A stretch of 64,000 bases of DNA from Candidatus Eiseniibacteriota bacterium (GTDB lineage: Bacteria; Arandabacterota; Arandabacteria; Arandabacterales; Arandabacteraceae), in contig JAZDEY010000035.1 in assembly GCA_043808325.1 (NCBI GenBank), positions 2,853-66,852 of the forward strand. The letters are read 5' to 3'. The position numbers were made by a program, and so were the translations under genes. Under the pieces are notes generated by a model. It worked only from the letters and a program-made list of their open reading frames with translations. It was not told the DNA's origin and did not search any database. This document shows, one piece after another, positions 1 to 8,253 of this stretch (the first letter of the stretch is position 1; the number at the start of each line of letters is the position of its first letter).

Positions 1-660
1 GGAGCGGGACGAGGAGGCGATTCGGGGCTGGGTGCGCAGCGAATGGCCCCGGGTAAAAAAAACGCCTGGAGGCTAAAGGCCAGTCTCGTTTTCATCGATG
101 AGAGTGGGCTCCTCATGGCCCCGCTCGTCCGCCGCACCTGGGCGCCGGTTGGACAGACCCCGGTCCTCTATCAACGAGGGCGGTCCCATGAGCGTATCTC
201 GATGATCGCGGCCATTACCGTCTCGCCCCGCCGACGCAAGGTGGGACTTTACTTTTCGCTCCTGGCCAACGAGAACGTCGTTACCCATTCCCTACTCCGG
301 TTTCTCCGGCAGATCCGACGCCAACTCGGTACGCCGATAATCCTCGTGTGGGACCGGTTGAATGTCCATAGATCCGCCCGAGCGATTCTCCAGCGCCGCA
401 ATCACTCCATCCATTCGGCCTTTCTGCCGCCCTACGCTCCCGAGCTGAACCCCGTGGAGGCTTTCTGGTCGTACCTCAAGATGAACCCTCTGGCGAACCA
501 CGCGGCCCTCGATGTCGAGGAGCTTCACCGGCGCGCCGGGCGTCACGCCCGCGCCATCGCCGCAGATCAGCACTTGCTTCGCTCCTTCATTCGCACAACA
601 CCACTTTCTCTACGTCTCAAATGAGACGTTACTTATGCGATGATCAATAAGCCGCGGCCA
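1..660 (+). mobile_element. IS630-family insertion sequence, right portion. The left end lies outside the window and the right terminal inverted repeat was not delimited.
   Basis: orfB (43..624) has IS630/Tc1-mariner DDE-domain hallmarks (LVFIDESG, PPYAPELNPVEAFWSYLK). Frame 2 at the window start reads ...EEAIRGWVRSEWPRVKKT, ending at a stop near position 75, which is typical of the end of IS630 orfA. The two frames overlap on an A8 run (gggtaaaaaaaacg, ~50-58). Confidence 0.75.
43..624 (+). CDS. IS630-family transposase, orfB / DDE catalytic part. It is probably made as an orfA-orfB fusion by a -1 frameshift.
   Basis: DDE-region motifs. The reading frame is open to position 1 in the same frame. 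A8 slippery heptamer lies immediately upstream. Confidence 0.75.
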   Translation: MAPGKKNAWRLKASLVFIDESGLLMAPLVRRTWAPVGQTPVLYQRGRSHERISMIAAITVSPRRRKVGLYFSLLANENVVTHSLLRFLRQIRRQLGTPIILVWDRLNVHRSARAILQRRNHSIHSAFLPPYAPELNPVEAFWSYLKMNPLANHAALDVEELHRRAGRHARAIAADQHLLRSFIRTTPLSLRLK

Positions 661-1079
661 ATCCCACCCAGTGCCCCCAACATCCGCCCAAACACTGGCG
701 TGCTCTCGGCACCCCCTTCACCCCAAAACATTGCGCCAACTACGGACCCGGCTATGCCCCCTATGAGCATGCCCGCACCCGCGCCGATAACCGCATGGCG
801 AAACCTGGATCCAGAGGGGCGCCACACTTCGATATGCGTGATCGACCGCAGGGGAACTGCCAGCGATCGCTGATTACTCTGCGTGATCCAAAGCGTGTCC
901 CTTGCCGCAGCCAGAACGGTTGCAACATGGTGTGAAAGCACAGGTGCATTCGCATCCACGCGTACCCGCGTGCCCGCCGCGGGAGGAAAAGAGGAGGATG
1001 AAGGCTTCGCGGGCTGTGCAGGCTGCACCCACACCAAAAGACTCATGAGACTACACAAAGTCAAACCTAACCACCGCAT
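633..1079 (-). CDS. Cassette protein A1: signal peptide, periplasmic domain and C-terminal glycine-zipper (GAGAGMLIGGIAG) membrane segment. SlyB/17-kDa-antigen-like glycine zipper. C-terminally shorter than A2/A3.
   Basis: Start taken as MRW (RBS aggagg 6 nt upstream), consistent with A3. Paralogous to 2525..3085 and 4553..5101. Stop lies 9 nt from the IS630 orfB stop. Confidence 0.6.
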   Translation of the reverse strand: MRWLGLTLCSLMSLLVWVQPAQPAKPSSSSFPPAAGTRVRVDANAPVLSHHVATVLAAARDTLWITQSNQRSLAVPLRSITHIEVWRPSGSRFRHAVIGAGAGMLIGGIAGSVVGAMFWGEGGAESTPVFGRMLGALGGIGRGLLIIA

Positions 1080-1179
1080 GAGACACCTCCTGCTAAAGCA
1101 TCGTGATGTCATCTACCTTCGAAACGTCCCGCTATCACTCGTCTTATACCGCGAGAATGGTCTCGGCAACGGCTTCAGG

Positions 1180-1810
1180 TTCTCACGGACGTGTGACAGT
1201 CAGCTCCGCTATCCCCGGCCCCGGTCCTTTATTCTGAGGAGCGTAGGGCTCAGACCAGAAACGCAACGGCGGTCTACATTCACGTTGTACCTTGGGCCGT
1301 AGTCTATCGCAACCGGAATCGATGGCTCAGATAAGAGAAAGTCTCGGGTGAAGATGAACGAAGATGGCAATATCCTGCCCGCTCATCATGGGAGTCTGGC
1401 TTTGACTCGGGATCCGTAGCGATCCTCTCAAGGGCGCCGTGATGGGCGGGGGCACCGCGCCGGTCGACGCTCTTGTCGGCTGAACCGCCACAGGTGTGTG
1501 TCTCATTTACACACGGTCCGGCAAGGGCGTGCCAGGGAAGATATGGCGGGCTCGCTCAATTCATTCGCAGCCAATGATAGATGGTGTCCCCGCAAGAGGT
1601 TGGACAAGCGACGTGGCGCCGCAGCATCCGCACGCGGCATGCATGCGCTTCGCTGATTCCTCGATGCCGGTGGAAGAGCCGGTTTCCTGCTGCTCACCAG
1701 CACGATAATTGAACGCAACGGACCGGAGCGAGATCTGCAATGCGTCTGCTCAATCTGCGGCAGAGCCATGCCATCGGGTCAATTCTCGCCTGGACGGCAA
1801 GTCCTGCTAG
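1180..1810 (-). repeat. Conserved spacer copy 1 (~630 nt) between cassette genes B1 and A1. ~95% identical to 3180..3835.
   Basis: Direct sequence comparison with copy 2: ~13 substitutions plus one 18-nt indel over the ~275-nt stretch aligned base-by-base; the rest was compared by eye. The flanking A and B genes are only ~50-60% identical at protein level. The block begins exactly at the B stop codon and ends ~70 nt before the A start. Confidence 0.8.
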
Positions 1811-2411
1811 CTAAGGTGCCGTGCCCACATAAACGGCATAGATGAAGCCAACGGCAGCGGCGACCGCCAAGCCGATCACGCCGACGCGCCAGCCCGGCGG
1901 GCCCAGACGTATGCCTGCGTGCAGGCCGCCCCCCTCGAGGCCACCCTTCAGGAGATCCATGCCTATGTAAGGAGCAACCCGATCTTTGTAGTTGACGTCG
2001 ACGTGCCCTGCAAAGCCCGGCTGCACATCGCCTCCTGACCACGTGCGACCCAATATCGGCCCTCCCGCGAAGTTCATGCTCCAGTTCGGGCTCATCCATC
2101 GCCTGACCCTGAGCTTTAGCCCCCCACGAACGCATTCCAAATTGTTGTCAAAGGCGATGTAAGTAGTCCCCCCGATGGCATAGCGCTCACGGTAGTTGAC
2201 CATCCATCCGATCTCGGAACTAAGGCAGATCGGGTCGTAGGTCTTAGGCATGTAGCCGAGCCCAAACTCCGTTATCCAAAATGTTTTGCAGGCAGGCGCG
2301 GGTTTCCCTCGGAAACACATCCGTGCGCTAGCCGGGACAGCTACCAGGTACAAGAACGAGAATGCGGCGATCGCCAGAATGACAAGTGCTCTCCCGATGG
2401 TGTGCCTCATT
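1811..2411 (-). CDS. Cassette protein B1: N-terminal signal peptide, ~150-aa Cys-containing extracytoplasmic domain and C-terminal hydrophobic anchor.
   Basis: Start at MRHTIG with RBS aaggaggg. Signal peptide ALVILAIAAFSFLYLVAVPASA. C-terminal VGVIGLAVAAAVGFIYAVYV. Paralog of 3836..4435. Confidence 0.55.
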
Positions 2412-2524
2412 ACTCCCTCCTTTCCCGCGCGGTCAAGACGCATACTATGGCCTCTGCAGCATAGCGCACGCTTCATCAGCACGGATGCTGCATGGCCTCC
2501 CTGCCGTCATCAAGACTCGGGAGC

Positions 2525-3085
2525 TCAGAACACGGGCAGGGTCAGTGCCAGCCCCATGTGACTATCCCTATATGATCTAAGGCTCACCTTCACCGGGAGG
2601 GTCACTTCCTCCCACTTTCCCGTAGGTAGGACAAGCCCGACCGTCGTACCGACCACCAGACCAAGCGGAATGCCCACTATCACACCCCACATAGCCGCGA
2701 TTTTGTCGTCCCCACCCCTACCCTTCGCATCGGTATACGCTTCGAGCGCGCCTAACGCTATGCCCCCGATGAGCATGCCGGCACCCGCACCAATAACCGC
2801 ATGGCGGGCTCGCGAGCCGTAGGCATGCCATACTTCGAGACGGGTAATCGACCGCACGGGCACTGCCCGGGGCCGCTCGTAAGCTCGCCCAAGCCAAAGA
2901 GTGTCGCCGCTGGCAGCCATGACCGTCACAACATGGTGAGACAGCTGATGTGTGCTGGCATCCACTCGTACGCGCTCACCCACGGGGGGAGGAAAAGAGG
3001 CCTTATCGCGCTCGGCAGACTGAACGGGCACAGCCAGAACCATCAGAATCACAAGACCGCACAAACTCATATCTACCCACCGCAT
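2525..3085 (-). CDS. Cassette protein A2 (glycine-zipper membrane protein paralog)
   Basis: MRW start with RBS aggagg. GAGAGMLIGGIALG glycine zipper plus second hydrophobic segment. Confidence 0.6.
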   Translation of the reverse strand: MRWVDMSLCGLVILMVLAVPVQSAERDKASFPPPVGERVRVDASTHQLSHHVVTVMAASGDTLWLGRAYERPRAVPVRSITRLEVWHAYGSRARHAVIGAGAGMLIGGIALGALEAYTDAKGRGGDDKIAAMWGVIVGIPLGLVVGTTVGLVLPTGKWEEVTLPVKVSLRSYRDSHMGLALTLPVF

Positions 3086-3179
3086 GAAACACCTCCTGCT
3101 AACGTGCCGTAACGTCATCGACCTTCGAAAAGTCCCTACCGCAATCCTCGTGATAATGTGAGAATGGCTGCGGCTTCAG

Positions 3180-3835
3180 GTTCTCACGGACGTGTGACAG
3201 TCAGCTCCGCTATCCCCGGCCCCGGTCCTTTATTCTGAGGAGCGTAGGGCTCAGACCAAAAACGCAGCAGTAATCTACATTCGCGTTGTACCACGAACCG
3301 TACTCTATCACAACCGGAATCGATGGCTCAGATAAGCGAAAGTCTCGGGTGAAGAGGAACGAAGATGGCAATATACTGGCTGCTTATCCTGGGAGTCTGG
3401 CTTTGACTTGGGATCCGTGGCATCACCCTCAAAGGCGCCGTGATGGGCCGAGGCCCCGCGCCGATCAACGCTCTTGTCGGCGGAACCGCCACAGGTGTGT
3501 GTCTCATTTACACACGATCCGGCAAGGGCGGGCCATGGAAGATATGGCGGGCTCGCTCAATCCATTCGCAGCCAATGATAGCTGGTGTCCCCGCAAGAGG
3601 TTGGATAAGCGGCGCGGCACTTGCTCCTGCAAGCGACGTGGCGCCGCAGCATCCGCGCACGGCATGCATGCGCTTCGCTGATTCCTCGATGCCGGTGGAT
3701 GAGCCGGTTTCCTGCTGCTCACCAGCACGATAATCGAACGCACGGGACCGGAGCGAGATCTGCAATGCATCTGCTCAATCTGCGGCAGAGCCATGCCATC
3801 GGGTCAATTTTCGCCTGGACGGCAAGTCCTGCTAG
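3180..3835 (-). repeat. Conserved spacer copy 2. Same element as 1180..1810, with an 18-nt insertion.
   Basis: Near-identical sequence, including the shared hairpin-like motif ggtgtgtgtctcatttacacac and the gcatgcatgc palindrome. Confidence 0.8.
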
Positions 3836-4435
3836 CTACGGCGCGGTGCCAGCTGCAAGGAGAGCGAGGAAGCCAAAGGCAGCAGCCACCGCCAGGCCAA
3901 TCACGCAGAGGCGCCACCCGGGGTGCCATCCCGGTAGCCCCAGACGTACGCCTGCATGCAAGCCACTCCCCTCCTCAAGGCCGCCCGCCAGGGCATCCAG
4001 GCCTAAGTAGGGAGCAACCCAATCCTTGTAGTTAACGTCGACGTGCGCTGCAAAGCCCGGCTGTACGCCTTGTGACCCACGACCGAATATTGGCCCTCCT
4101 GCGAAGTTCATGCTCCAATTCGGACTCATCCACCGCCTGACCCTAAGCATGGGCCCGCACCGAAAAGGTTCGCGGAAGGCGACATAAGTAGTCCCCCCGA
4201 TGGCATAGCCCTCACGGTAGTTGACCATCAACCCGATCTCGCAAGTGGGGCAGGCCGGACGGGGCGTTCCCTGCATATAGCCCAGCCCAAACTCCGTTAT
4301 CCAGAATGTCTTGCAGGCAGGCGCGGGTTTCCCTCGGAAACACATCTGCGCGCTGGCCGGGACAGATACCAGGTAGAGACAAGAGAACGCCGCGATTCCC
4401 AGAATGATAAGGCCTCTGGCGATGAACTGCCTCAT
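3836..4435 (-). CDS. Cassette protein B2 (paralog of B1)
   Basis: Start MRQFIARG with RBS ggaggg. Same CFRGKPAPACKTFWITEFGLGY core as B1 and a C-terminal hydrophobic tail. Confidence 0.55.
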   Translation of the reverse strand: MRQFIARGLIILGIAAFSCLYLVSVPASAQMCFRGKPAPACKTFWITEFGLGYMQGTPRPACPTCEIGLMVNYREGYAIGGTTYVAFREPFRCGPMLRVRRWMSPNWSMNFAGGPIFGRGSQGVQPGFAAHVDVNYKDWVAPYLGLDALAGGLEEGSGLHAGVRLGLPGWHPGWRLCVIGLAVAAAFGFLALLAAGTAP

Positions 4436-4552
4436 TACTCCCTCCTTTCCCGCGCGGCCAAACCACATATTGTGGCCCCCGCAACACAGCACACTCTTCA
4501 TCAGCCGGACGCTTGCAAGTGGGCCTCCTGACCATCATCAATGCCCGAAGGC

Positions 4553-5101
4553 TCATAAGAAGGCCACCGTCAGTGTCAACCCGGGACGGCCATTCCCTAT
4601 CGATCTGATGCTCACCTTCCCGGGGAGGGTCACATCCTCCCACTTTCCCGTAGGCAAGACGAGACCGACCGTCGTGCCGATCAGCAGCCCCGTGGGAATG
4701 CCCGTGATCATGCCAGCTGCGGCGGGGGATAGGGCCCCAATGTCACCGCTCACTGCACCCAGCACAGTGAAAGCTACGACCCCTATGACCACGCCTGCGC
4801 CCGCACCTATAGCCGCGTGCCGAGACCGTGAGCCAGAGGGGCGCCACACTTCGAGGTGCGTGATTGACACCACGGGCACGGCACGGGGCGGCTTGTCAGC
4901 CTGCGCGAGCCACAGAGTGTCACTACTCACGGCCCTTACGATTGCGGTATGCTGAACCAGTACAGGTGCGCGAGCATCCACTCGTACGCGCTCACCCATG
5001 GGGGGAGGAAAAGAGGCCTTATCGCGCTCGGCAGACTGAACAGGCACAGCCAGAACCATCAGAATCATAAGACCGCACAAACTCATATTTACCCACCGCA
5101 T
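4553..5101 (-). CDS. Cassette protein A3 (glycine-zipper membrane protein paralog). First unit of the array; no B copy upstream.
   Basis: MRW start with RBS aggaga. GAGAGVVIGVVA zipper. C-terminus similar to A2. Confidence 0.6.
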   Translation of the reverse strand: MRWVNMSLCGLMILMVLAVPVQSAERDKASFPPPMGERVRVDARAPVLVQHTAIVRAVSSDTLWLAQADKPPRAVPVVSITHLEVWRPSGSRSRHAAIGAGAGVVIGVVAFTVLGAVSGDIGALSPAAAGMITGIPTGLLIGTTVGLVLPTGKWEDVTLPGKVSIRSIGNGRPGLTLTVAFL

Positions 5102-5652
5102 GAGACATCTCCTGCTACCACAGCTGTAGCGTTAGTGGCTTTCTCAACGTCGTGATAGATCAGAACCGCAGCTCCTATGCGTTCGGGTCATGCTCCTCAC
5201 TCGACAACCATCTTCACCGTACCCAGCCCTCTGCGCTCCTGCTAAGTAGATAGCACACAACCCGAATTGGAGGCGAGGCCGTGCTCTTCTGGAGATCGTA
5301 CCACACGCCCCGGGCATCCGCAATTGCGAATCGAACCTCCTACGCACGAATCCTGATACTATTTGATACATTCATTCACACCCGTGTGTCTATCTGACAC
5401 AGCAATCATGGACCTACACTGGGAAACGCCACCTCATTTCGATGGGCCGATCGTTCTGCCGCTCGTAACTGTCGTGGGCGCAAAGGCCTGGACAGAGGGG
5501 ACGCGGACGGCATATGCTTTTCGCTTCGGCCGTCGCGCTGGCACGGGGATTGCGACCATCCGAGGGCTGGGTGATTGTAGCCAATGGACCCGTCCGGGCA
5601 GAAACATTTCGCCCGGAGAAATCGTCATTACTCTCGAAAGGAGGATTCATCA

Positions 5653-8253
5653 ATGAGAAGAACCCGCACCAACTTCGTCGTGGCCATGCTCATTCTTACC
5701 TTAGCGGTCACAGTCGTCTTCCTCGGCACCTCCATGGCAGGCTCGGAGTTTCCCCCCTACCGTTCCGAAACCGAATTCATGCTGACACCTCCGGGAGCGA
5801 TCGGTTGGGAGGGCTATGGCTTCACCAATCCGGCCACGCTCACCTATGTCACTGCGCCCGACTTGCTCTTTGCGTGGCGAGGTTCCGAGTCCGGCAGGCT
5901 CGGCCCCAACGCGAGCGACATCACCAAGTGGGGCATCTTCACCGCAGTGCCCGGCCTTGGCTTCGGCGCGATCCACGAGAAGAACGCTCTCGGTAGCATC
6001 ACCGATTACAGGCTCTCACTTGCCACGGGTACCAAGCGGATCGGCTTCGGCGCAAGTTATGGCTGGTCGAGCGGGGACAGGGGGCTCTTCAATCGAACCG
6101 CCGCGATCGGCCTGGGAGCTCTCCTGCGGCCGGCGCGCTTTCTCTCGGTCGGGCTCTCGGGGAGAGCGGCAACCGAGGGCGGCGACAGACAGGGGATTCT
6201 CGATGTCGGCATCCGGCCACTCGGCCGCGACTTCGTTACCCTCTTCGGAGACTATGCCGTCGAGCGGGACCAGATGGTGAAGAACGGCTCGTGGAGCGCA
6301 GGTGCGGCCCTGAGGGTCGCCCCCGGCATCCATATCACGAGCCGCTACTTCGGCGACAATGCCACCCAGGCTGTGACCGCCGGCCTGAGTTTCGATCTCG
6401 GCCGTATCGGTCTCTCTTCCCAGGCCCACTACGACAACAACCAACATCGCGCATATAATACCTACCGCGTACGCGCCGGCGCCTACAATCCCAACATCCT
6501 CGACACGTATGTAATGCCCGAGCGCAAGTACGTCGAGCTCGATCTCTTCGGGCCGCTCAAGTACCAGCGCTTCCGCATGTTCGACGAGTCGAACACGCTT
6601 GCCGGGGTGCTTGCCCTGATCGAAGCCGCCAAGACCGACCCGCGGGTCGCCGGAATTGCCGTTAAGGCCTCGGGCGCGGAGATCGGCCGGGAAATCGCCT
6701 GGGAGATCCGCGAGCAGCTGCGCGACTTCAAATCCACGGGCAAGCCCGTGATCATCTTTCTGGATAACGGCAACATCGATGCCTATCACTTCGCGTCGGT
6801 AGCCGACAAGATCGTGCTCGATCCTACGGGCATGCTCATCTTCGAGGGTTTCCTCATGGGCCGCACCTTTCTCAAGGGAACCCTCGAAAAGGTCGGCCTG
6901 GGATTCGATGAGTGGAGATTCTTCCGATACAAATCCGCCGAGGAGCCGCTCTCACGCGACAGTATGTCCGAGGGCGACCGCGAGCAGCGTCAGCGGCTGG
7001 TCGACGAATACTACCGCGTGGCAAAGAGCGAGATCTGCGCGGCGCGCGCTATCTCGCCGGTGGAGTTCGATCGCTTGGTTAATGAGGAAACCATCTTGCT
7101 GCCAGCGGATGCTTTGAAACTGGGGCTTGTGGACACTCTGGCGCGCTGGGATGCGGCGGAGGACGTGATCAAATCACTCGAAGGCAAAAAGAAGAAGACC
7201 GTCACGGCGGGTTCGCTCGGCATATCCGGCTCATCGCTTGCCGCGCTTGGCGGCGGAAGCACAGCGGGCGGCTCTGAGGCTGCCTGGGGCGACGCGCCGG
7301 AGATTGCGATCATCTACGCAATCGGCGAATGCGCGATGGATACCGGGATCAAGGCCCGCAGTCTCGTCAAGGACGTCGAAGCCGTGACCCAGAATTCAAG
7401 GATCAAGGCAGTGGTCCTTCGGGTTGACTCGCCCGGGGGCGACGCCCTCGCATCCGATATCGTCGCCGAGGCAACCAAGAAGTGCGCCGAGAAGAAGCCG
7501 GTGATTGTCTCTCAGGGAGCCGTGGCGGGCTCCGGCGGCTACTGGCTTTCGATGTACGGGACCTCGATCGTTGCTGCGCCCATCACCATCACCGGGTCGA
7601 TCGGCGTGATCGGCGGGTGGCTCTATAATGTGGGCATCAAGGAGAAGCTCGGCATGACCACCGACCACGTCATGGTCGGCAAGCACGCCGACCTTGGATT
7701 TGGGATGAGGCTTCCCCTTATCGGGGCCGGCGTTCCCGATCGCAATCTCACGAGCGAAGAGCGCGCCAAGATCGAGAATATGATCAAGGTCTTCTACCAG
7801 GACTTCGTGGGTAAGGTGGCGGTGGGGCGCAAGATGAAGTCCGAAGCGGTTGATGAGGTCGGTCAGGGTCGGGTCTGGTCCGGCGCCGACGGCAAGGACC
7901 GGGGCCTGGTGGATGTGTTGGGTGGCCTCGAAACCGCAATCATGCTTGCCAAGGAGAAGGCCGGTATCAAGCCCGACCGTGAAGTGGCAATAGTGGAGCT
8001 GCCGCGGCCCGAGCTCTTCAATATGGGTGTGTTCACACCGAAATTGATTGGAGTCGCCGGAGTCGCCCATCGGCTGGGTATCGGCGGCCTATTGGGTAGC
8101 GGGCTCTCCGGTGTTGCCGGCTTACCGTCCCAGAGCGACCCGCTTCTTGATTATCTGAAATTCCGCCTGGAGCACAACGGCCAGCCCATGCCGATGATGC
8201 CGCTTGAGGACCTTGACATGCTGATGGAGGCCCAGACCGGCGCCGGCAATTGA
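5653..8253 (+). CDS. sppA: Signal peptide peptidase SppA (67K type, tandem S49 domains) fused to a ~290-aa N-terminal beta-rich domain
   Basis: C-terminal S49 motifs AVVLRVDSPGGD and SQGAVAGSGGYWLS. The N-terminal third has alternating aromatic/hydrophobic beta-strand pattern after a signal anchor. RBS aaggagg before ATG at 5653. Confidence 0.7.
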   Translation: MRRTRTNFVVAMLILTLAVTVVFLGTSMAGSEFPPYRSETEFMLTPPGAIGWEGYGFTNPATLTYVTAPDLLFAWRGSESGRLGPNASDITKWGIFTAVPGLGFGAIHEKNALGSITDYRLSLATGTKRIGFGASYGWSSGDRGLFNRTAAIGLGALLRPARFLSVGLSGRAATEGGDRQGILDVGIRPLGRDFVTLFGDYAVERDQMVKNGSWSAGAALRVAPGIHITSRYFGDNATQAVTAGLSFDLGRIGLSSQAHYDNNQHRAYNTYRVRAGAYNPNILDTYVMPERKYVELDLFGPLKYQRFRMFDESNTLAGVLALIEAAKTDPRVAGIAVKASGAEIGREIAWEIREQLRDFKSTGKPVIIFLDNGNIDAYHFASVADKIVLDPTGMLIFEGFLMGRTFLKGTLEKVGLGFDEWRFFRYKSAEEPLSRDSMSEGDREQRQRLVDEYYRVAKSEICAARAISPVEFDRLVNEETILLPADALKLGLVDTLARWDAAEDVIKSLEGKKKKTVTAGSLGISGSSLAALGGGSTAGGSEAAWGDAPEIAIIYAIGECAMDTGIKARSLVKDVEAVTQNSRIKAVVLRVDSPGGDALASDIVAEATKKCAEKKPVIVSQGAVAGSGGYWLSMYGTSIVAAPITITGSIGVIGGWLYNVGIKEKLGMTTDHVMVGKHADLGFGMRLPLIGAGVPDRNLTSEERAKIENMIKVFYQDFVGKVAVGRKMKSEAVDEVGQGRVWSGADGKDRGLVDVLGGLETAIMLAKEKAGIKPDREVAIVELPRPELFNMGVFTPKLIGVAGVAHRLGIGGLLGSGLSGVAGLPSQSDPLLDYLKFRLEHNGQPMPMMPLEDLDMLMEAQTGAGN

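Follow-up and report, generated by a model that had tools for sequence, protein, structure and literature searches.

A tandem array of genes for two exported proteins in a Candidatus Eiseniibacteriota bacterium, with non-coding spacers possibly homogenised by gene conversion

Within a 64-kilobase (kb) stretch of DNA from a Candidatus Eiseniibacteriota bacterium (hereafter the window: positions 2,853 to 66,852 of contig JAZDEY010000035.1, assembly GCA_043808325.1), two small genes, here named A and B, are repeated in tandem on the minus strand in the order A1-B1-S1-A2-B2-S2-A3, where S1 and S2 are two copies of a long non-coding spacer. The genes have diverged considerably whereas the spacers are much alike, and a short tract at the 5' end of A1 and A2 is as young as the spacers. 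The scenario we favour, and to which we give an even chance of being correct, is an old tandem paralogue array with conversion-driven homogenisation of its spacer. An old duplication of two genes for small exported envelope proteins would have left paralogues that diverge under purifying selection, gene conversion within the array (concerted evolution) would have kept the non-coding spacer alike, and the same conversion would recently have homogenised the 5' end of A1 and A2. Conversion would then be the cause of the spacer similarity, and the proteins themselves would be located in the outer membrane.

Organisation of the array

The repeat unit is about 2.0 kb long (2001-2040 nucleotides (nt) from start to start), and the array consists of two full units and a third A copy, A3, which lies beside an IS630-type transposase gene. 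Protein lengths below are in amino acids (aa).

4553-5101, minus strand: A1, a 182-aa exported protein with a signal peptide, small beta domain, two glycine-zipper helices and C-terminal beta tail (open reading frame, NCBI annotation V1694_04295, family alignment)
3836-4435, minus strand: B1, a 199-aa exported protein, a predicted 8-stranded barrel with a C-terminal hydrophobic helix (V1694_04290)
3171-3838, minus strand: S1, non-coding spacer core of 668 nt that begins at the B1 stop codon (bounds from nhmmer and alignment)
3086-3170, minus strand: j1, diverged stretch 5' of A2, roughly 55-65% identical to j2, with AGCAGGAGG as the Shine-Dalgarno sequence at its end
2525-3085, minus strand: A2, a 186-aa paralogue of A1 (V1694_04285)
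1811-2410, minus strand: B2, a 199-aa paralogue of B1 (V1694_04280)
1170-1813, minus strand: S2, the other spacer core (644 nt), in which 24 nt of S1 are missing, the gap being flanked by CGCTT repeats
1080-1169, minus strand: j2, diverged stretch 5' of A3 that carries the A3 Shine-Dalgarno sequence
633-1079, minus strand: A3, a shortened 148-aa A paralogue that ends just past the start of the second glycine zipper, without the C-terminal tail of the family
4974-5117, minus strand: young tract in A1, from the Shine-Dalgarno sequence to about codon 43, with 6 differences in 144 nt from A2 positions 2958-3101; not in A3
2958-3101, minus strand: partner of the young tract in A2
1-624, plus strand: gene of an IS630-family (DDE_3) transposase, incomplete at the window start and running towards A3 (Pfam DDE_3, E=1.6e-27)

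The gene order and coordinates are those of the first-pass annotation of the window, and its description of diverged paralogues in a repeating scaffold adjoining an insertion sequence (IS) stands. The proteins of locus tags V1694_04280 to V1694_04295 match B2, A2, B1 and A1 exactly, and since these tags are consecutive the NCBI annotation leaves the spacer between A2 and B1 without a gene. The interval between a B stop codon and the following A start measures 750 nt in one unit and 731 nt in the other, and exactly two copies of the spacer exist within the window. A1 has no spacer 5' of it; this region shows no sign of a decayed spacer or A fragment, the alignment scores being at the level of shuffled sequence.

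Divergence of genes and spacers

The A proteins are 64% (A1/A2), 55% (A1/A3) and 50% (A2/A3) identical and B1 and B2 are 75% identical in amino acids, figures that replace the 50-60% first proposed for both sets of paralogues. By the Nei-Gojobori method, the number of substitutions per synonymous site (dS) is 0.62 for A1/A2, 1.0-1.2 for A1/A3 and A2/A3, and 0.52 for B1/B2, and the ratio of the non-synonymous to the synonymous rate (dN/dS, or omega) is 0.33-0.41 across the paralogue pairs. As dS thus spans 0.52-1.19 at this low dN/dS, the duplication is old and the genes are under purifying selection. When the proteins are divided into regions, strands, zippers and tails have an omega of 0.2-0.4 and loops one of 0.7-0.8, with no region above 1; in B the strands have 0.23 and the loops 0.79. 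Purifying selection on the paralogues is therefore relaxed in the loops.

The spacer cores present a different picture. Over 641 aligned columns they are 92.7% identical (668 and 644 nt in full; the first estimate had been about 95%), with 47 substitutions (p=0.073) and one 24-nt indel, and their divergence of 0.077 is about 7-fold below that of neighbouring silent or four-fold degenerate sites. The view of these spacers as hyper-conserved holds for the strong contrast with the genes, which is far beyond chance, but not for the last ~85 nt before each A start, which are at neutral divergence. The indel is a 24-nt segment found only in S1 (3604-3627). It lies between CGCTT direct repeats, as would be expected if slippage had deleted or duplicated it, and although its length is a multiple of three, coding constraint is seen in none of the frames.

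One might ask whether the tandem order is an artefact of metagenome assembly, related loci of different strains having been joined via the shared spacer, as the source is a metagenome-assembled genome (MAG) and an exact 88-nt block in the spacer is bridgeable by short k-mers. We regard this as very improbable: the copies are too diverged for a collapsed or duplicated repeat (the array genes are 65-80% identical in nucleotides), three different A and two different B genes stand in one consistent order, and independent assemblies of relatives also have tandem A genes.

A second young tract and the associated 8-mer

The argument for conversion comes from inside the A genes. In the tract shared by A1 and A2 (5117-4974 and 3101-2958, read along the minus strand) just 2 of the 26 four-fold sites are different, and dS (codons 1-45) is 0.06, while the remainder of the gene has 0.6-2.2. 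The tract is sharply bounded on either side, with one boundary in mid-domain, and A3 lacks it. It bears the mark of conversion and not of constraint, because the silent-site identity is confined to one pair of the three paralogues. Gene conversion thus acts in the array, and since the A1/A2 tract matches the spacer in age, the same process can account for the spacer as well. What had been taken for a conserved scaffold is accordingly better read as a set of gene-conversion tracts.

Gene conversion among tandem bacterial paralogues has precedents in, for example, duplicated tuf genes, rRNA operons and the opa/pil loci of Neisseria. Like these, the array carries short, near-identical tracts with sharp ends, silent sites included, within old and diverged paralogues. 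Unlike them, its largest homogenised tract is non-coding, the genes largely escape, and the direction from donor to recipient is not deducible.

Both tracts start at or near the 8-mer TAGCAGGA, the A1/A2 tract exactly at it and the spacer tract 4 nt earlier, at the B stop codon. The 8-mer has six copies in the window, all of them on the minus strand in the array locus (about 1.2 are expected, and no shuffle reached 6). Three lie at A ribosome-binding sites (1088-1095, 3094-3101 and 5110-5117), two just inside the left edges of the spacer, after TAGC (1802-1809 and 3827-3834), and one 127 nt 5' of the A1 site (5237-5244). It may be a leftover ribosome-binding site from a time when B and A adjoined closely, the trace of an old target duplication, or else a signal for recombination. 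A bolder proposal, which we consider unlikely, is that the spacer is a new functional non-coding element peculiar to this array, in which TAGCAGGA might for instance mark the start of directional gene conversion, so that the array would have homogenisation or cassette exchange built in.

Conversion or constraint on the spacer

A number of observations weigh against the conversion scenario. On its left side the identity block begins precisely with the B stop codon; of the final four B codons three differ at silent positions, and the 68 nt beyond them contain a single difference. Divergence along the spacer is uneven (8/207, 9/145, 29/200 and 1/90; a chi-square of about 22 by hand, with 3 degrees of freedom), which could be due to variable constraint or to several conversion events. 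The median gap between long open reading frames (ORFs) in the window is about 66 nt, and a non-functional spacer of 650 nt kept twice would be unusual. The structure models on which the protein assignments lean are of low confidence (predicted local distance difference test (pLDDT) 57 and 47). Finally, no orthologous locus was found, so that conversion and constraint are inseparable.

These features have led us to consider that the spacer is instead a functional non-coding element under purifying selection, be it a site that acts at the DNA level, an RNA without structure, or a long regulatory leader or promoter for the A gene that follows. The sharpness of both spacer edges, with the left one at a stop codon, the uneven divergence with its near-invariant 88-nt block at the 3' end of the core, the rarity of long non-coding stretches in the window, and the 7-fold deficit in divergence relative to four-fold sites would all suit such an element. 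We nevertheless find it doubtful, although it is the chief alternative to the conversion scenario, as A1 does without a spacer 5' of it and the A1/A2 tract of the same age shows that conversion alone gives such a pattern.

The RNA analyses point in the same direction and give no support to a structured RNA. Rfam 15 gave no match at gathering score in the window and none at E<=1 in positions 1-6000. The folding z-scores of the whole spacers were -1.15 and 0.06, no 120-nt segment was unusually stable in both copies on either strand, and RNAalifold found one compensatory pair only. When the S2 substitutions were threaded onto the S1 fold, 88% (minus strand) and 27% (plus strand) of random placements gave an energy at least as low; the substitutions are as disruptive as random ones and hence not structure-sparing. 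Homologues of the spacer were found neither in the loci with A or B relatives nor in plasmids, phages, genome representatives, two viral-contig scans, or predicted proteins.

Coding and mobile-element tests of the spacer

A hidden gene was rejected. Whichever of the six frames is read, non-synonymous changes exceed synonymous ones, and the two copies have no ORF in common that is preceded by a Shine-Dalgarno sequence, whereas A and B have strong ones. Those ORFs that do occur in both copies are separated by many amino-acid changes. The spacer ORFs match nothing in Pfam or NCBIfam; one of 96 aa had no match among 5.8 billion proteins, and tblastx of the spacer against every fetched locus and the remainder of the window produced nothing above chance level.

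A group II intron, a diversity-generating retroelement and an integron attC site were each discarded, there being no reverse transcriptase gene, no match to domain V in Rfam, and no likeness of the spacer to A or B. So was a miniature inverted-repeat transposable element of the IS630/Tc1-mariner kind derived from the neighbouring IS, given that the spacer lacks terminal inverted repeats, has no similarity to that IS and exists in only two copies. Internal repeats and subterminal hairpins were also absent from the spacer.

The more general possibility, that the spacer originated as a non-autonomous mobile or otherwise inserted element, which recently entered both B-to-A junctions or entered one and was then copied into the other, draws on the razor-sharp edges, on the adjacent IS, and on the occurrence of TAGCAGGA both inside the left core edge and at the A ribosome-binding site ~725 nt on, in the manner of an 8-bp target duplication. 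It is nonetheless quite improbable in our estimation, for the reasons that spoke against a derivative of the neighbouring IS, to which it may be added that no further copy was found elsewhere in 64 kb or in the searches listed above. Moreover, not all of the DNA between the two 8-mers is young, since the ~85 nt that separate the core from the second 8-mer have diverged to a neutral level.

Protein A

The A-type family, widespread but as yet uncharacterised, is defined here from HMMER matches, by a match to the profile over the whole length together with the motifs given below. Among 1.84 billion representative sequences, 1,573 proteins matched the A1-A3 profile at E<=1e-3, with 54 of them reaching E<=1e-10; most are about 180 aa long and aligned over nearly their whole length. 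Where a member has been given a name, this is 'hypothetical protein', and one such member comes from a Gemmatimonadales MAG. A1-A3 themselves match nothing above threshold in Pfam or NCBIfam, their only glycine-zipper match being to PF13436 (E=0.099, 12.9 bits with a cut-off of 27); among 25 scanned members, each Pfam model for glycine zippers (Gly-zipper_YMGG, Rick_17kDa_Anti and Gly-zipper_Omp) recognises 5 or 6, with best E values of 4e-7 to 4e-5.

An alignment of 25 members reveals a common design: a signal peptide, the motifs GxRVRV, DTL and S[IV]TRLEV, two glycine-zipper segments, (D)RWExVxL, and a tail RVS..P.R.G..L.L.V.F that usually has an aromatic last residue. A1 and A2 possess all of these motifs, and A3 lacks everything past the start of the second zipper. 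Modelling suggests that A combines an Sm/SH3-like beta domain with a glycine-zipper helical hairpin and a C-terminal beta tail. The signal-peptide-like N-terminus and the glycine-zipper helices bear out the earlier assignment of A as an exported glycine-zipper protein. In the N-termini of A (MRWVDMSLCGLVILMVLAVPVQSA followed by ERD) the only cysteine stands at the start of the hydrophobic core, and they appear to have no lipobox of the form L-[AS]-[GA]-C.

The closest relatives of A (fetched loci L006-L008 and L011) are fused double-A proteins or neighbouring A genes, and tandem amplification is therefore a habit of the family. The fused double-A protein (353 aa), or a run of three A-like segments, occupies positions 74-1135 of L006, 213-1274 of L007 and 65-1392 of L008, and in L006 a Peptidase_M14 gene follows the fused gene.

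Protein B

Homologues of B are few and 41-56% identical to it: the proteins P0003 and P0004, the latter with its cluster, a copy in L003, and a disrupted copy in L004. A scan of genome contigs with the B profile yielded no match, and B has neither a Pfam or NCBIfam family at E<=1 nor a sequence-level match in the PDB. The four full-length proteins that could be aligned (B1, B2, P0003 and P0004) have in common a signal peptide with A-x-A-Q/R at its end, the loop CFRGKPxPxC, and a hydrophobic segment at the C-terminus that closes with G(T/L)A(P/E).

The AlphaFold2 model of B, which is of low confidence (pLDDT 57, predicted template modelling score 0.53), has eight antiparallel strands followed by a C-terminal helix. 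A reasonable reading of this model is that B is an outer-membrane-type barrel resembling those of OmpA, OmpW and NspA, and together with the signal-peptide-like N-terminus this agrees with the extracytoplasmic location first suggested for B. No Pfam or NCBIfam model or PDB chain of the small 8-stranded barrels (OmpA N-domain, OmpW, OmpX, NspA, OprF N-domain, PagL, Opa) matches its sequence, however, and B differs from them in two further respects. It ends in a hydrophobic helix of about 20 residues instead of a terminal aromatic beta-signal, the last residues in the B proteins, P0003 and P0004 being GTAP, GLAP or GLAE, and its conserved CFRGKPxPxC loop (Cys-x8-Cys) lies at the mature N-terminus.

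Two of the fetched loci offer additional detail. At L001 (1832-2640) and L012 (7511-8319) a gene for a 67-aa two-helix membrane protein, which has no counterpart in the window, lies 8 nt 5' of the B homologue, and in that organism the two may form a small operon. The B homologue at L004 (5043-5567) is apparently disrupted, as tblastn spans only residues 14-155 and the ORF begins in mid-gene; it overlaps the end of a 1,274-aa ORF on the opposite strand.

Relationship to known systems

Outside the array, A and B keep separate company. The B homologues on other contigs are solitary, with no A gene nearby and no spacer-like DNA 3' of them (at L012 a different gene begins 157 nt past B), and the relatives of A occur as A-A tandems or fusions with no B nearby. 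Because its B homologues stand alone elsewhere, A-B is not a conserved module, and the two-gene cassette envisaged in the first-pass annotation is no obligate unit in the other loci examined. The search for the A-B-spacer unit that it had recommended found neither the pairing nor the spacer in the fetched A and B loci or in the databases searched.

Polymorphic toxin systems, such as those of contact-dependent inhibition (CDI) and Rhs, include tandem 'orphan' toxin-immunity cassettes. The array is similar in having repeated, diverged two-gene units in tandem beside mobile DNA, and it had been likened to surface variation or to an effector/immunity-style module. In a polymorphic system of either kind, selection would keep the copies of A and B different and the scaffold constant. 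Both products are indeed predicted envelope proteins, the differences and indels between B1 and B2 cluster in predicted long surface loops (amino-acid identity 0.35 in loops versus 0.84 in strands), and a sharp edge at the stop codon would follow if the genes were excluded from conversion. We hold such a system to be improbable. The dN/dS comparison detects no diversifying selection, as the ratio remains below 1 in every region, at no more than 0.8 even in the loops, and fast loops are normal for outer-membrane barrels. Part of A1 and A2 has itself been homogenised. Pfam and NCBIfam reveal no toxin, immunity or defence domain, PADLOC gave no significant result, and, in contrast to CDI and Rhs cassettes, both proteins have signal peptides and the pair is not kept in other organisms. 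The statement that no described system could be recognised has held up, since Pfam, NCBIfam, PADLOC and the PDB provided no match to a known one. Gene conversion is a simpler explanation of the spacers than a new system would be.

With regard to A, the nearest known proteins are SlyB, YfgH and Pcp (glycine-zipper 2TM lipoproteins; PF05433, PF13441 and PF13488), which like A are exported and have two GxxxG-type helices. SlyB and YfgH ring outer-membrane proteins under stress (bioRxiv 10.64898/2025.12.22.696046), and the position of A beside the predicted barrel B suggests, by analogy, a SlyB-like partnership. Compared with SlyB and Pcp, A1-A3 score below the Pfam gathering cut-offs and are without a lipobox, which places A outside the glycine zipper 2TM lipoproteins (PF05433). 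Compared with SlyB, A also has an extra N-terminal Sm/SH3-like domain and a conserved C-terminal RWExV...RVS...F tail.

Neighbouring genes

The transposase reading frame is open to position 1, and the IS thus continues beyond the window start. A3 stops about 10 nt from the end of this gene, with the last ~40 residues of the family missing, and was probably truncated by the IS. A perfect hairpin, ACGTCTC-AAAT-GAGACGT (613-630), overlaps the transposase stop codon, and the A3 stop lies 9 nt further on the opposite strand.

On the other side, an 889-aa SppA-type peptidase is encoded at 5584-8253 on the plus strand, divergent from the array and with two Peptidase_S49 stretches. The best-scoring of these is residues 635-795, and no significant Pfam match is listed for the N-terminal part. 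The 482-nt gap between A1 and this gene is among the larger gaps of the window.

Implications

If the conversion scenario is true, the locus is an ordinary paralogue array that provides a clean example of concerted evolution acting mostly in non-coding DNA; greater importance would attach to it only if the spacer turned out to be a functional element or a conversion hotspot. As for its products, B represents a new and very small family of predicted barrels whose C-terminal helix is unusual. The family of A is large (more than 1,500 clusters at 50% identity) and has no Pfam model; in its members an Sm/SH3-like domain is joined to a glycine-zipper hairpin, a motif that SlyB and YfgH have now linked to outer-membrane stabilisation.

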